NCBI RefSeq assembly: GCF_003018255.1
Contig: NZ_CP027440.1
From: Escherichia coli
GTDB taxonomy: Bacteria > Pseudomonadota > Gammaproteobacteria > Enterobacterales > Enterobacteriaceae
DNA length: 64,000 bases
Direction: 5' to 3' (one strand)
Positions within the stretch are counted from its first letter, which is position 1; each line of letters starts with the position of its first letter. The position numbers are program-made. Positions 1-9,000 of the stretch are shown here, piece by piece.

Positions 1-3000
1 TGTTTTTTTTGGTGTCGCCAGAAAATATAATGCAGATATAATTCCAGCTGCATGAAGAAACTTTGTTGCAACATCATCCCACAAAGACAAAGTCATTAAA
101 GACAACATACATAATATGAGAATTAAAGACTTGACACCAGAGTTAATTTCATTCCAACAAAACGACATATAATTTCAACCTATGCTACGAGGATGGGTTA
201 TTTAATGCAAGACCTAACGTTTATTCTTTTTTCTACTTACCAGTCTTACCATCCTCCAGAGAATATAGTTTTTTGATGCTAATATTTTTGCTCGCCTCTT
301 ATCTCTCTTGCCAAGAAGATTACAATCTTTCAATTCTTTTTCATTGCTTTCAACTAATTGATTTAATAATTCAAAATCGCCATTAAGTAGAACATTCCAT
401 AAATAACGAGTTTTATGATAAGTTCTATTCTTACTCAATAATGTATGAATTTCTTCTTTCCGGTTACCTTTGTATAACTGCATCACAGAAGAGTAGATTC
501 TTTCGTGCGCAAATGACTCATGTCGATAATGAGTGATGGTTCTACATGAGTTCATTAAGGAATTTTCTCTATAGTTATGCTTATACATATAATATGGAAC
601 CGCATACATATCGCATGTAATTAGCAGTCGATAGATAAAATCCAGATCTTCTCCTAGTCGTAAATCTTCATCAAAAAAAAGATTATTATCTTCCAGGAGT
701 TGTTTTCTTATAAACAAGCACCCTATATGGAATCTGACCTTTTTATAAAAAAAATCGAAAAGTAAAGACCCTTCATTAAAATCTGTATTTATAGGTGAGT
801 AAGTAACACCATTTTTTATATGATGTCCATAAAGCCCACAATAAATCGCATCCCCTCCCGTCTCATGTTGTCTGGAATACATCTTCAGCAGATAGTTAGG
901 ATCTATCTCATCATCATCATCCATAAAACATATAAACTGTCCTTGCGCCTTGCGGATACCTGTATTCCTGGCAGACGAAACACCGCCATTTTCTTTATTG
1001 ATAATAATTAATCGAGAGTGGGTTAACCCATACTCTCTCAAAACATTTGATGTGTTATCTTTAGAACCATCATTAACAATAACAATTTCAAAATTTGGGT
1101 AAGTTTGTTTTTCTAATTTCGTTAGAGTTTCAGTAATGTAATCAGATGAATTATACGTCGGTATTATTATGGATACTAAAGGGTAATCATTGCTCATCGT
1201 GTTCTCTTGCCTGAACTAATAAAATATGATAGTACTCATCCTTAATTATTATTGTAACTCAGACATCCATGATTTTTATTATTGCCCAAATAGTTTTCTT
1301 TTATACTTATTTAATTTGAATTTAATGAAGTAAATAAAAGCGTTAAACGTATCACCATTTTTCTTTGCATGTTGGTATTTCACTTGATACTGCTTTTCAT
1401 TCGTGGCTGGAATAAACGCCACATCATTCCAGCAAGAAGCCTGATAAGCCTCATTAAAATACTTCTGGCAGGGATAATTCGTCCAGTCGTTCCAGGGCTT
1501 CGTTACGCCAACATAATGAATCAGCTTAGTATCATCGGTAATGGTCTTTTTATAATCTTCATCGCTTTTATTTTTTAACTCATAGTCAATGCCATAAAAG
1601 CAATCATAATCGCCGCTAATAAAAATACAATGACCAAAGAACAGAATATTTAAAATATCCTGATCAAGGCATTTATATTTCGTGTGCTGCGGGTCACTTG
1701 CCAGCATAGCAATGGCTTTATTCATAAAATCATTTTTCGCCCATGCTTCAAGCTGCAGATATACTACACCGGCGTTGAAATAATTACCTGGAAGTCCCTC
1801 TATAGCCAGACGCTTCGCTGGTTTTTCCTGCATAAAAGGCACATCTTTAATAACAGCTGCGAACTTATCGCCATCAAAATTAATATCAAGCAATCCAGCT
1901 AATGAGCCTTTACAGATGACATCAGCATCGATATATAACAGATTTTCAATAACTTCACTCAGATACTGGAACGCAACTAAACGGAAGAATGTTGCATAAG
2001 ACCACTGTTTCAGGCTGGGGAAGATATCAATAAAGGCACTGGAGACTTTATAAATTTTTACTTCAACGTTAGCATTTTTGCTGGTAAAAGCGTTAACACG
2101 TTGTAGATAATCTTCATCAATGTAGTCGGTAAAGAGATGAAACTTAACCGCAAGGTCCGGGTTATGCATAACAACTGATTGCATAGATACTGCCGCACCA
2201 AATAAAAAATTACGGTCAATACCGTAAGCGATATTTAACACACGATCGGTGTTAGCAATTTCCCCAGAGACAGCGACTTCAGTAATACTCTCAGCTAATA
2301 AATCCATGTTGGTTCCGTTTTGACTGTGTGGTTTACGCTTTGCCTTTTAATTTTTTAATAAATTTGCGTAGTTTGGTTCTGTAGATTACTGAATAGTAGC
2401 CATAATCTTTTATTTCGTTGGCAATACCCAGGTGACGTTCCATGGCCAGACGATCACGAGCTTTACGCTCTGCCGTACAGCTTTTACCGGATAGGTCAAT
2501 TATCCTGACACCATCTTTACTAACGATAAAGTTACCCCGGTGAGGGTCGCCCGATAGCATATTTAAGGCATGCAATTTTTCCATTGAAGCCTTAATTTCT
2601 GCTTTAACATTTTCTGGAATAATCGGCATATCATTGAGTTCTACGCCCTCGACATACTCGATAAGCATGATAAAAACACTGGCATAGTTGAAAATTTTAC
2701 GCTCAGCCAGAAAATAAAAATCATTAGGAAAAGTAAGACCTGCACTTCTGACACGATCGGTTTCAACGATCAAATTCTGATAGTAGTCACCTTTTACAAA
2801 AGATTTAAAAAAACGTTCATTCCTTTTCGTTTTGGGAGCAAAGACTTTAAAAACATAGCGACCATATTTCGTATCAATCAACGATACTTTGGTATCATCA
2901 ATATTACGTAATACTTTTACTGTTTTAAAATTATAGGCCAGTATTTCATCAAAGATTTCTTTATATTTATTATCGTTATCTTTGTAATAAAATGAGAAGC

Positions 3001-6000: not shown

Positions 6001-9000
6001 TAAAATCTCATTCAATGTTTCCTGGCGGAATGGCTCAGCAATAGCCTCGCCGCAATTGGCGTCGACAATATAATGCGCATAGCCACAAACGGCAGTTGTT
6101 AGTACCGGTAATCCTGCAGTAATCGCTTCCAGCAGCACAATTCCCGCCGCTTCCTGGTAGGCAGGATGCAGTAATAAATCCGCCGCCGCCATTAATTCCG
6201 AGACATCGTTGCGCCCCGAGAAGAAGTGAACATTACTGCGCACGCCGCGTTTTTCTGCCAGCGCCTCAAATTTTCGCGGTTTATCCTGCCCAACAACATA
6301 TAGCAATGTGTTGTGGCGCAGCGAATCCGGTAACGAAGCAAGTGCTTCAATGGAACGATCGACACCTTTACGCGTGAAGTCTGAACCGACCTGCAACAAT
6401 AAATATTGTTGTTCGGTTATTCCATTCTTCTTACGGAAGATTTCACGGCTATTAGCTGGCTGCTGGCTATATTTACGATCAGGATAAATCCCCGGTGGCA
6501 GAATATGAAAACGCTCCGCTTCAGTCTGATAATGTTTCTGGAAATCGGCGATTTGCTTATCTGTCAGCATCAGCAGCTGTGTCGGCTTGCCCTGTTCGAA
6601 GGTTGCCCGCTCAAAGGCGGCATAATGGCGATAACGTGACGTCAGGCGATAGAAAAAGCCTTTTTCCTGCGCTACTTTCTCGGCATAACAAACATCAGCG
6701 GCATAATAAACGTCCAGCCCCGGCATTTTGTTGAATCCAACGACTTTATCGACGGGATGTTCGCGTAAATGTTTTTGCACCCAGGCAAAATACTCCGCAT
6801 TGCGCCCGTGATTGGTATGCGATTTAACCGGCACTTTGATCAGTTCAAATACATCAGGGCATTCGCCTTCCCACGACTGGGTATAAACCCGAACATGATG
6901 ACCTCGGGCGGCGACTGTCTGAGCAATACGCATAAAATCGCGCTGCAAACCGCCAAAGGGAAAATATTTATATAAACAAAAAGCAACGATCATAACGACG
7001 TACCTGTCGTGGAGGAGGGCAGTAATTTATCGACAGCAGCAATGACATCTGCCGCCGGAATAACCGAAAGATACATCTCATTTCGGTCACGCTGATCGCG
7101 CGTTGGCATTTCCCGGTAATCTCCCGCCCAGAATTGAATCATGTTATTTGACCAGGGACGCCAGAAAATATGGTCTGTCGCACCAAACAGCGATATCAGC
7201 GGCGTATTAACTGCAGCGGCAATATGCGCCGGTGCGGAGTCAACGCCAATAAACAGCTGCGCATGATCGATTAACGCACCAAGTTCCGGGAAGGTCACCT
7301 TTCCGGCCAGCGCCATTACTGGTGGCGTCTGGCATCCCTGCGCAATTTCATTGACGCAGGCCAGATCGTCTTTATCTGGGCCGGACGTCAGAACGACTTC
7401 ATAACCACGAGCATGTAAGGCATCAATCACAGCGGAAAACTTGGCGTTGTCCCAGCATTTGAAGATTTGCCGCGCCGTAGGTTGGATAACCACATAATTT
7501 TGTCCAACACCAGCGTGATCAAGTTCGCGACGCATACGTTTCCAGCTTGCAGGCGGGTAACTCATGGTTGTCTGCTTCACCAACGAATCAACTCCCAGTG
7601 GTGTCAGCACGGATAAGTTACTTTCCACCACATTTCCACCCTGCAACGGCACCAAATGGGTGAAACTTTTACGCCAAAAAGCAGACTGCCGATGATGATA
7701 ATCCTGGGAAATTTTCACACGGGCATTTAATAAGCGCACCAGTATAGCAACCATCCATTGATCGGTAAGATTAACGATAAGGTCATACTTATTGGCACGT
7801 AATACCTTGATGAGATGGAAAAAGTTGGCAATTTTTTCTGAGGCTTTTGCTTTTTTATTTTTTATGCCGTAGAGCGCGTTAATCTCTGGATTTTCAGACA
7901 GGATCGGGATGGTGTCCTGATAAAGCAGCACATCGATTTTTGCGTCAGGGTAATTTTTTTTCAGCGAACTAATGACGGGAGTAGTTAATAACATATCCCC
8001 ATGAAAACGCATCTTAATGAGCAAAATTCTTCGAAATGGCTTATCCACAAGTAACTCTTTTTGTTGAGATTATCCGATTAAGGTGAAGCAGAAAAAGCAC
8101 GCTACCGCCCCAGGCTCAACAGCTACCTGAATACTGATACCGCACTGATATTGACGCGCTAGTGTATCACTTCTTTCGCGGCAATCCGACCCGAATGATT
8201 TTTAAGCACATTGTTGATTTTCAATAAAGAAATCAATCAAATAAAATCATTAGCAACCATATTCTTTCACTGTTGCTCTGCGATTCCTTCCTGCACGTAC
8301 TGCAGAAATCAATGAATCGCATAAAAATACAAAAAAAGTATAGATGTTCAGCAAGAATTGGCGGGTAAATTGCTATTTAAGTCAAAAACGGGAAAAGTAA
8401 TGGTAAAGCCACAGCTAAATACATAGAATCCCCAGCACATCCATAAGTCAGCTATTTACTATGCTCGAATTGCTTTACACCGCCCTTCTCTACCTTATTC
8501 AGCCGCTGATCTGGATACGGCTCTGGGTGCGCGGACGTAAGGCTCCGGCCTATCGAAAACGCTGGGGTGAACGTTACGGTTTTTACCGCCATCCGCTAAA
8601 ACCAGGCGGCATCATGCTGCACTCCGTCTCCGTCGGTGAAACTCTGGCGGCGATCCCGTTGGTGCGCGCGCTGCGCCATCGTTATCCTGATTTACCGATT
8701 ACCGTTACAACCATGACGCCAACCGGTTCGGAGCGCGTACAATCGGCTTTCGGGAAGGATGTTCAGCACGTTTATCTGCCATATGACCTGCCCGATGCAC
8801 TTAATCGTTTCCTGAATAAAGTCGACCCTAAACTAGTGTTGATTATGGAAACCGAACTATGGCCTAACCTGATTGCGGCGCTACATAAACGTAAAATTCC
8901 GCTGGTGATCGCTAACGCGCGACTCTCTGCCCGCTCGGCCGCAGGTTATGCCAAACTGGGTAAATTCGTCCGTCGCTTGCTGCGTCGTATTACGCTGATT

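Follow-up and report, generated by a model that had tools for sequence, protein, structure and literature searches.

Data

The data presented here concern positions 1-8136 of a 64,000-nucleotide stretch of Escherichia coli DNA (contig NZ_CP027440.1, assembly GCF_003018255.1; the whole stretch is called the window), where genes for the core of the lipopolysaccharide (LPS) were found on the minus strand. Between 214 and 8048 there are eight intact genes in the order waaQ-waaG-waaP-waaO-waaT-waaY-waaW-waaV, closely spaced with intergenic gaps of at most 81 bp or slight overlaps, and they are followed by the start of waaL, which encodes the O-antigen ligase. This part of the window is almost certainly the central waaQ operon of the E. 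coli chromosome with an LPS core genotype of type R1, leading into waaL. The gene content, its order and intactness, the protein families, the R1 markers and the lack of markers of the other core types were all observed directly. The coordinates are collected in Table 1.

Table 1. Features of the window with their position, strand and supporting evidence (functions of the glycosyltransferases and kinases are predicted)
Feature	Position	Strand	Evidence and remarks
JUMPstart element with ops, waaQ leader	8098-8136	-	Rfam RF01707, 55.2 bits against a gathering score of 35, E 6e-10
waaQ, GT9 heptosyltransferase III	6990-8048	-	352 aa; Pfam GT9 1e-68
waaG, GT4 glucosyltransferase I (GlcI onto HepII)	5869-6993	-	374 aa; Pfam Glycos_transf_1 1.8e-39
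waaP, heptose I kinase	5079-5876	-	265 aa; Pfam Kdo/WaaP kinase 4e-75
waaO, GT8 (alpha-1,3-glucosyltransferase, GlcII to GlcI)	4047-5063	-	338 aa; Pfam GT8 8.5e-80
waaT, GT8 (alpha-1,2-galactosyltransferase, GalI to GlcII), intact	3035-4030	-	331 aa; Pfam GT8 2.5e-72
waaY, heptose II kinase	2333-3025	-	230 aa; Pfam WaaY 8e-130
waaW, GT8	1279-2307	-	342 aa; Pfam GT8 1.9e-71 and GT8 C-terminal domain; PGAP product name
waaV, R1-specific GT2 (beta-1,3-glucosyltransferase, side-branch glucose on GlcII)	214-1197	-	327 aa; Pfam PF00535 3.8e-39
waaL 5' end, first 56 codons of a probably R1-type O-antigen ligase	168-1	-	ATG start, MSFCWNEINSG...; continues past the left edge
R1-diagnostic amplicon, 842 bp	597-1438		R1-F in waaV (597-615, +), R1R4-R in waaW (1419-1438, -), exact matches
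Module of waaP, waaG, waaQ and leader	5079-8400	-	Common to R1, R3 and R4 at about 99%
Module of waaO, waaT, waaY and most of waaW	~1377-5078	-	R1 and R4 only
Module of the last ~32 waaW codons, waaV and the waaL start	1 to ~1376	-	R1 only
Three C4 antisense RNAs in the 15.8-kb island	22908-22995, 23370-23458, 23831-23918	+	Rfam 72-78 bits against a gathering score of 45

Genes of the operon

The Pfam E-values of the eight operon proteins range from 1e-39 to 1e-130, and a chance origin of eight frames of 230-374 codons with such values, in DNA with a G+C content of 32-47%, is far out of the question. An earlier note, made by reading the sequence alone, had proposed the order waaQGPOTYWV and had suspected that a minus-strand frame at 1-168 was the start of the next gene. 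The eight minus-strand frames and their Pfam families agree with that order and are collinear with the locus of E. coli B except for an IS1 within waaT of the latter, and the frame at the left edge is indeed the beginning of the next gene, waaL, which is probably of R1 type. In strain JNE112863 the 417-aa O-antigen ligase annotated by the Prokaryotic Genome Annotation Pipeline (PGAP; Wzy_C, Pfam 2.5e-17) begins exactly where this frame begins, and the 56-aa fragment is the same in both. The G+C content is about 44-52% in waaQGP and drops to 32-41% in the outer-core genes, as is commonly seen in the variable portion of waa loci.

Three of the products have a specific NCBIfam model and pass its cut-off clearly, namely WaaQ (RfaQ, 713 bits against 467), WaaP (RfaP, 478 against 170) and WaaY (RfaY, 401 against 248). 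NCBIfam holds no specific model for WaaV, WaaT, WaaW or WaaL, and the GT8 paralogues match one generic model, "lipopolysaccharide 3-alpha-galactosyltransferase", on which WaaO alone scores above the cut-off; NCBIfam is therefore unable to type the core. The translations retain intact DxD-type motifs (YLDADIAC, YLDADVVC, YIDADVIC and MDDDDEID), and for each of the operon proteins looked up by exact sequence there are from 38 to more than 1000 contigs with an identical protein. The exact-sequence lookup of the GT2 protein returned generic "glycosyltransferase family 2" names, the name WaaV not being among them, and its function was assigned from the literature (PMC13293308; bioRxiv 10.1101/2022.09.06.506728). 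For WaaV and WaaO no structure was found in PDB, only relatives at family level (chondroitin synthase, SpsA, LgtC).

Two annotation details of these genes may be mentioned. The start of waaQ is ambiguous between the GTG at 8048, which is chosen by PGAP and from which the NCBIfam model aligns from residue 1, and the ATG at 8012, which equals the annotated start in K-12. WaaO carries the label "lipopolysaccharide 3-alpha-galactosyltransferase" in PGAP and NCBIfam (NF011718). This product name is probably wrong for R1, where the residue added is glucose, and is a likely mis-transfer from the galactose-adding WaaI. E. coli B has a WaaO of 99.4% identity and a disrupted waaT, and the two glucoses that its outer core still contains imply that WaaO is a glucosyltransferase. 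The identities alone (54% to R3 WaaI, 50% to K-12 WaaO) do not settle which donor sugar the enzyme may prefer.

Leader and neighbouring genes

The operon reaches past the waaQ start codon at 8048, since it is preceded by a leader with JUMPstart and the operon polarity suppressor (ops) element (Table 1). The ops is read as GGCGGTAGCGTG at 8109-8098, which places it 50 nt before the GTG. Long operons of the ops/JUMPstart kind are defined by a JUMPstart element in the transcribed leader with the ops sequence GGCGGTAG inside it; the leader of this operon has that arrangement, and dependence on RfaH is predicted accordingly. The leader aligns well to that of K-12, in which the small RNA rirA is annotated, and the equivalent segment of the window lies at about 8082-8154. 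To the right of the operon are waaA and coaD, and comparison with near-identical genomes places waaC-waaF-rfaD beyond the left edge.

Comparison with reference genomes and loci

Positions 1-8400 of the window were searched by megablast against 5426 complete E. coli genomes, and the matches fell into four classes: those over the full length (98.3-100% identity), those over 1360-8400 only, those over 5079-8400 only, and those matching waaQGP at about 76%. One representative of each class was examined, these being E. coli B (NEBExpress), EE72d, O157:H7, and MG1655 with SY3626C1 (K-12 layout), together with Y5 (R2). Strain JNE112863 has 100% DNA identity over the 8.4 kb and 99.98% over window positions 1-12400.

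The full-length class includes E. coli B and ATCC 25922 ("Seattle 1946"), which are collinear with the window over the full length at about 98.5%. E. coli B is documented to have an R1-type core that is truncated through an IS1 in waaT (PMC8594841), and its NEBExpress locus shows exactly this, with the same gene order, the GT2 gene, waaL on the same strand and the IS1 in the second GT8 gene. The R1 arrangement waaQGPOTYWVL, as carried by E. coli B (REL606, BL21, NEBExpress), E. coli C (NCTC122), Nissle 1917 and the CFT073 lineage, has the same genes in the same order and on the same strand, with waaL last. Compared with E. coli B the proteins of the window are 93-99.5% identical, waaT is intact instead of IS1-interrupted, and WaaW has one more residue (342 against 341 aa). 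With Nissle 1917 and "clone D i2" the waaV-waaL junction has a DNA identity of 99.4%.

The other core types depart from the window to different degrees. The R4 locus (waaQGPOTYWXL) has waaQ to most of waaW in common with it at about 99% DNA identity and likewise has waaL on the same strand, but it ends in the GT25 gene waaX and in a WaaL without detectable match to the 56-aa fragment; the GT25 of EE72d was identified as WaaX because its sequence is identical to UniRef Q9ZIS2, "beta-1,4-galactosyltransferase". In R3 (O157:H7; waaQGP-I-Y-J-D) waaQ, waaG and waaP have 98-99.5% protein identity to the window genes, and the DNA identity is about 98.8% over 5079-8400, whereas only two GT8 genes are present (WaaI and WaaJ, 38-54% identical to the GT8 proteins of the window), a GT4 N-acetylglucosamine transferase stands where the window has the GT2, and waaL lies on the opposite strand in the rfaD-waaFC operon. 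The K-12 and R2 loci (waaQGPSBOJYZ-U/K) occupy the same chromosomal site between waaC and waaA and have the conserved JUMPstart/rirA leader, but their waaQGP is only about 76% identical in DNA, and the window lacks homologues of their extra genes waaS, waaB, waaZ and waaU or waaK.

At the protein level the same gradation was obtained by BLASTP against the reference loci. WaaQ is 99% identical to the WaaQ of R1, R3 and R4; WaaG is 99.5% identical to its R1, R4 and R3 counterparts and 90% to that of K-12; for WaaP the values are 98-99% and 83%. In the outer-core genes the relationship narrows. WaaT is 99.1% identical to R4 WaaT and 43-45% to WaaJ, WaaY is 99% identical to the R1 and R4 proteins and about 53% to those of K-12, R2 and R3, and WaaW is 98.2% identical to the WaaW of E. 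coli B, 92.4% to that of R4 and at most 38% to WaaJ and WaaI. The GT2 protein shares 96.9% identity with that of E. coli B over 327 aa, and no counterpart was found in the R4, R3, R2 or K-12 reference loci. The WaaL fragment shares 92.9% identity with the WaaL of E. coli B, and neither BLASTP nor tblastn gave a match between it and the WaaL of R4, R3, R2 or K-12.

The locus is thus a set of three nested modules (Table 1). The sequences of R1 and R4 part at about 1376/1377 (alignment column 124), which is not intergenic; it is inside waaW, about 100 bp before the stop codon, and because the break falls there the C-terminal ~32 residues of WaaW go together with waaL and with waaV or waaX.

Core typing

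An in silico polymerase chain reaction (PCR) was run with the nine primers for R1, R2, R3, R4 and K-12 of Trofimova et al. 2025 (PMC13293308). The window yields the R1 product, which exactly equals the published size of 842 bp, and for the other seven primers no site exists in the 64 kb when up to 3 mismatches are allowed. These negatives are meaningful because each control locus yields the product expected for its type with this primer set, that is 380 bp for R4 (EE72d), 1021 bp for R3 (O157:H7), 610 bp for R2 (Y5) and 1442 bp for K-12 (MG1655). All reference proteins were further searched by tblastn against the 64 kb; no homologue of WaaX, WaaU, WaaZ, WaaB or WaaS was found, WaaK and WaaD gave nothing more than a weak GT4 family-level match to waaG, and WaaJ and WaaI matched the GT8 proteins with paralogue-level identity only (38-54%).

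The R1 call of the earlier note, which had taken the terminal GT2 gene for waaV and not for the waaX of R4, therefore stands, with the 842-bp R1 product, no primer site of another type and matches of WaaV and the 56-aa WaaL fragment that are confined to R1. Pfam assigns the terminal protein to GT2 while its R4 counterpart is GT25. Both checks that the note had named point the same way: BLASTP of the outer-core frames gave R1 proteins as best matches (R4 for WaaT) and not WaaB, WaaS, WaaJ, WaaD or WaaX, and the core-typing PCR, done in silico, gave the R1 product only.

Proposed core assembly

The linkages between the sugars and the structure of the core as expressed are predicted from the genes, and the steps given here follow the family literature (PMC13293308; bioRxiv 10.1101/2022.09.06.506728). 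Transcription would start upstream of the JUMPstart/ops leader, and recruitment of RfaH at the ops would allow read-through of the operon of about 9.4 kb as far as waaL. WaaG (GT4, retaining) would add the first glucose (GlcI) onto the second heptose (HepII), after which the inner core would be decorated in the order WaaP, WaaQ, WaaY, HepI being phosphorylated by WaaP, HepIII added by WaaQ and HepII phosphorylated by WaaY. The outer core would be extended by WaaO (GT8, retaining) with an alpha-1,3-linked second glucose (GlcII), by WaaT (GT8) with an alpha-1,2-linked galactose (GalI) and by WaaW (GT8) with a further alpha-1,2-linked galactose (GalII). WaaV (GT2, inverting) would place a beta-1,3-linked glucose branch on GlcII, an action reported to depend on WaaW in the R1 literature (PMC13293308; bioRxiv 10.1101/2022.09.06.506728). 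Finally, WaaL would ligate the O antigen to this WaaV-added glucose branch, as reported for R1. The core predicted for the R1 genotype is GlcI-GlcII(beta-Glc)-GalI-GalII, carried by an inner core of three heptoses with phosphates. In the CAZy classification GT4 and GT8 are retaining families and GT2 is an inverting one, and the family classes fit the R1 linkages because retaining matches alpha and inverting matches beta.

Alternative readings

Several points weigh against the assignment of the locus to the R1 type and have to be set beside the evidence above. The link to R1 was made through E. coli B, the typing primers and the literature, and not through the prototype R1 strain F470. Of the 417 codons of waaL, 56 are inside the window. 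WaaV differs by 3% and the N-terminus of WaaL by 7% from the E. coli B proteins, differences which are allelic variation (see the two allele groups below). Expression of the core and its chemical structure are deduced from the genes and remain predicted. The limits of the operon rest on homology and not on signals, since a consensus scan of 1-8500 gave 24 promoter-like sites where 26.4 were expected and 4 terminator-like sites where 7.1 were expected, counts which are no higher than in shuffled sequence.

Among the other readings, the least unlikely accepts the R1 genotype and supposes that loss of RfaH, a polar effect or a missense defect has left the strain with a truncated or altered core. 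Truncated cores do occur in laboratory strains of R1 type, E. coli B being one that is left with two outer-core glucoses by the IS1 in its waaT, and enzyme activity is not readable from sequence alone. All eight genes of the window are nevertheless full length and uninterrupted, the looked-up proteins recur unchanged on many contigs as given above, and the DxD motifs and JUMPstart/ops are intact, so that an altered core seems improbable here, though it keeps a small chance.

A hybrid of R1 and R4 like that of ECOR46, in which a second pair of waaX and waaL would lie at another place in the genome, is still less probable and is held to be very unlikely. ECOR46 is such a strain (PMC13293308), and the sequence at hand is 64 kb of the genome only; yet no waaX or second waaL occurs within these 64 kb, the locus is collinear with no transposase within or adjoining it, and the 1833 genomes that carry the R1-specific segment have a median of one copy per genome and a maximum of two.

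An R4-type locus, that is the same waaQGPOTYW ending in waaX (a GT25 beta-1,4-galactosyltransferase) and an R4-type waaL, would account for the identity of about 99% between R4 genomes and window positions 1360-8400 and for WaaO, WaaT and WaaY being 99% identical to R4 proteins, but the chance of it is practically nil, as the terminal gene is a GT2 with no GT25 gene after waaW, tblastn finds neither WaaX nor R4 WaaL in the window, the R4-F site is absent while the R4 control yields its 380 bp, and the sequence departs from R4 to the left of about 1377. The R4 core genotype was accordingly rejected on the terminal gene, the primers, the protein identities, the sequence break and the tblastn result taken together.

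Prevalence and significance

With the R1 genotype as the preferred reading, its frequency was examined. The R1-specific segment (1-1278) is present in 1833 of the 5426 complete E. coli genomes (33.8%). In the literature R1 makes up 35.4% of 4505 typed genomes, 60.4% of uropathogenic E. coli (UPEC) and 92.6% of neonatal meningitis E. coli (NMEC) (Trofimova et al., PMC13293308); R1 is the commonest of the five known E. coli core types, and the figures for UPEC and NMEC bear out the remark in the earlier note that it is frequent among clinical isolates. The locus is the most usual form of a textbook R1 cluster, is already known and offers nothing new for LPS biology, because about one third of the complete E. 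coli genomes carry the same locus.

The waaV-waaL segment falls into two allele groups, 674 genomes being at least 99% identical to the window and 1158 being 95-99% identical, and the closest alleles include those of Nissle 1917 and "clone D i2". It is very doubtful that the group of the window, shared with these two, forms a functionally distinct subvariant of R1, for example with an altered ligase acceptor or O-antigen preference, in place of neutral drift.

The core type is of practical use as it predicts the availability of phage receptors (PhiX174 and T3 being phages of the R1 core), the reactivity of core-specific antibodies and the residue that bears the O antigen. An R1 core is also in keeping with a background like that of extraintestinal pathogens, given its shares among UPEC and NMEC (PMC13293308).

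Other elements in the window

Apart from the waa locus, the window carries an integrative element of 15.8 kb (17446-33269), situated at the 3' end of yicC and before dinD and missing from JNE112863, which is otherwise almost identical. The products encoded by the element are a tyrosine integrase (17562-18914), an AlpA-like helix-turn-helix regulator, Rha, a GIY-YIG/T5orf172 protein, a 518-aa Ash-domain protein, a DUF4222 protein, a DUF927 primase-like protein (24875-27013) and a single-stranded DNA-binding protein (SSB), and it looks like a phage satellite or an island of the phage-inducible chromosomal island (PICI) type. No exact direct repeat of at least 10 bp flanks the island, no complete PADLOC defence system was found among those of its open reading frames (ORFs) that were tested, and its coverage by complete E. 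coli genomes does not exceed 84%. The three C4 antisense RNAs of the island (Table 1) are spaced about 460 nt apart, and Tandem Repeats Finder (TRF) reports a 460-bp unit in 2.1 copies with 93% identity at 23037-24010. Related islands carry Icd-like ORFs according to PGAP naming, and a triplicated c4-icd immunity module of the P1/P7 type is unusual.

Between yicH and yicI, at about 47807-54750 on the minus strand, there is a cluster of eight genes which is absent from K-12 and whose coordinates were transferred from the annotation of JNE112863. It comprises a BglG-family antiterminator, the IIA, IIB and IIC components of a fructose-type phosphotransferase system (PTS), two aldolases, a ROK kinase and a D-lyxose/D-mannose isomerase, and we take it to resemble the "frz" operon associated with extraintestinal pathogenic E. 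coli (ExPEC) and B2 strains.

The tRNA-Sec gene selC lies at 59048-59138 on the plus strand. selC is a classic site of island integration, and the genes that follow it in the window up to about 61300, before yicL, are a RhuM-family gene and a hypothetical gene (annotation transferred from a near-identical strain); the region is a small islet, not a large pathogenicity island.

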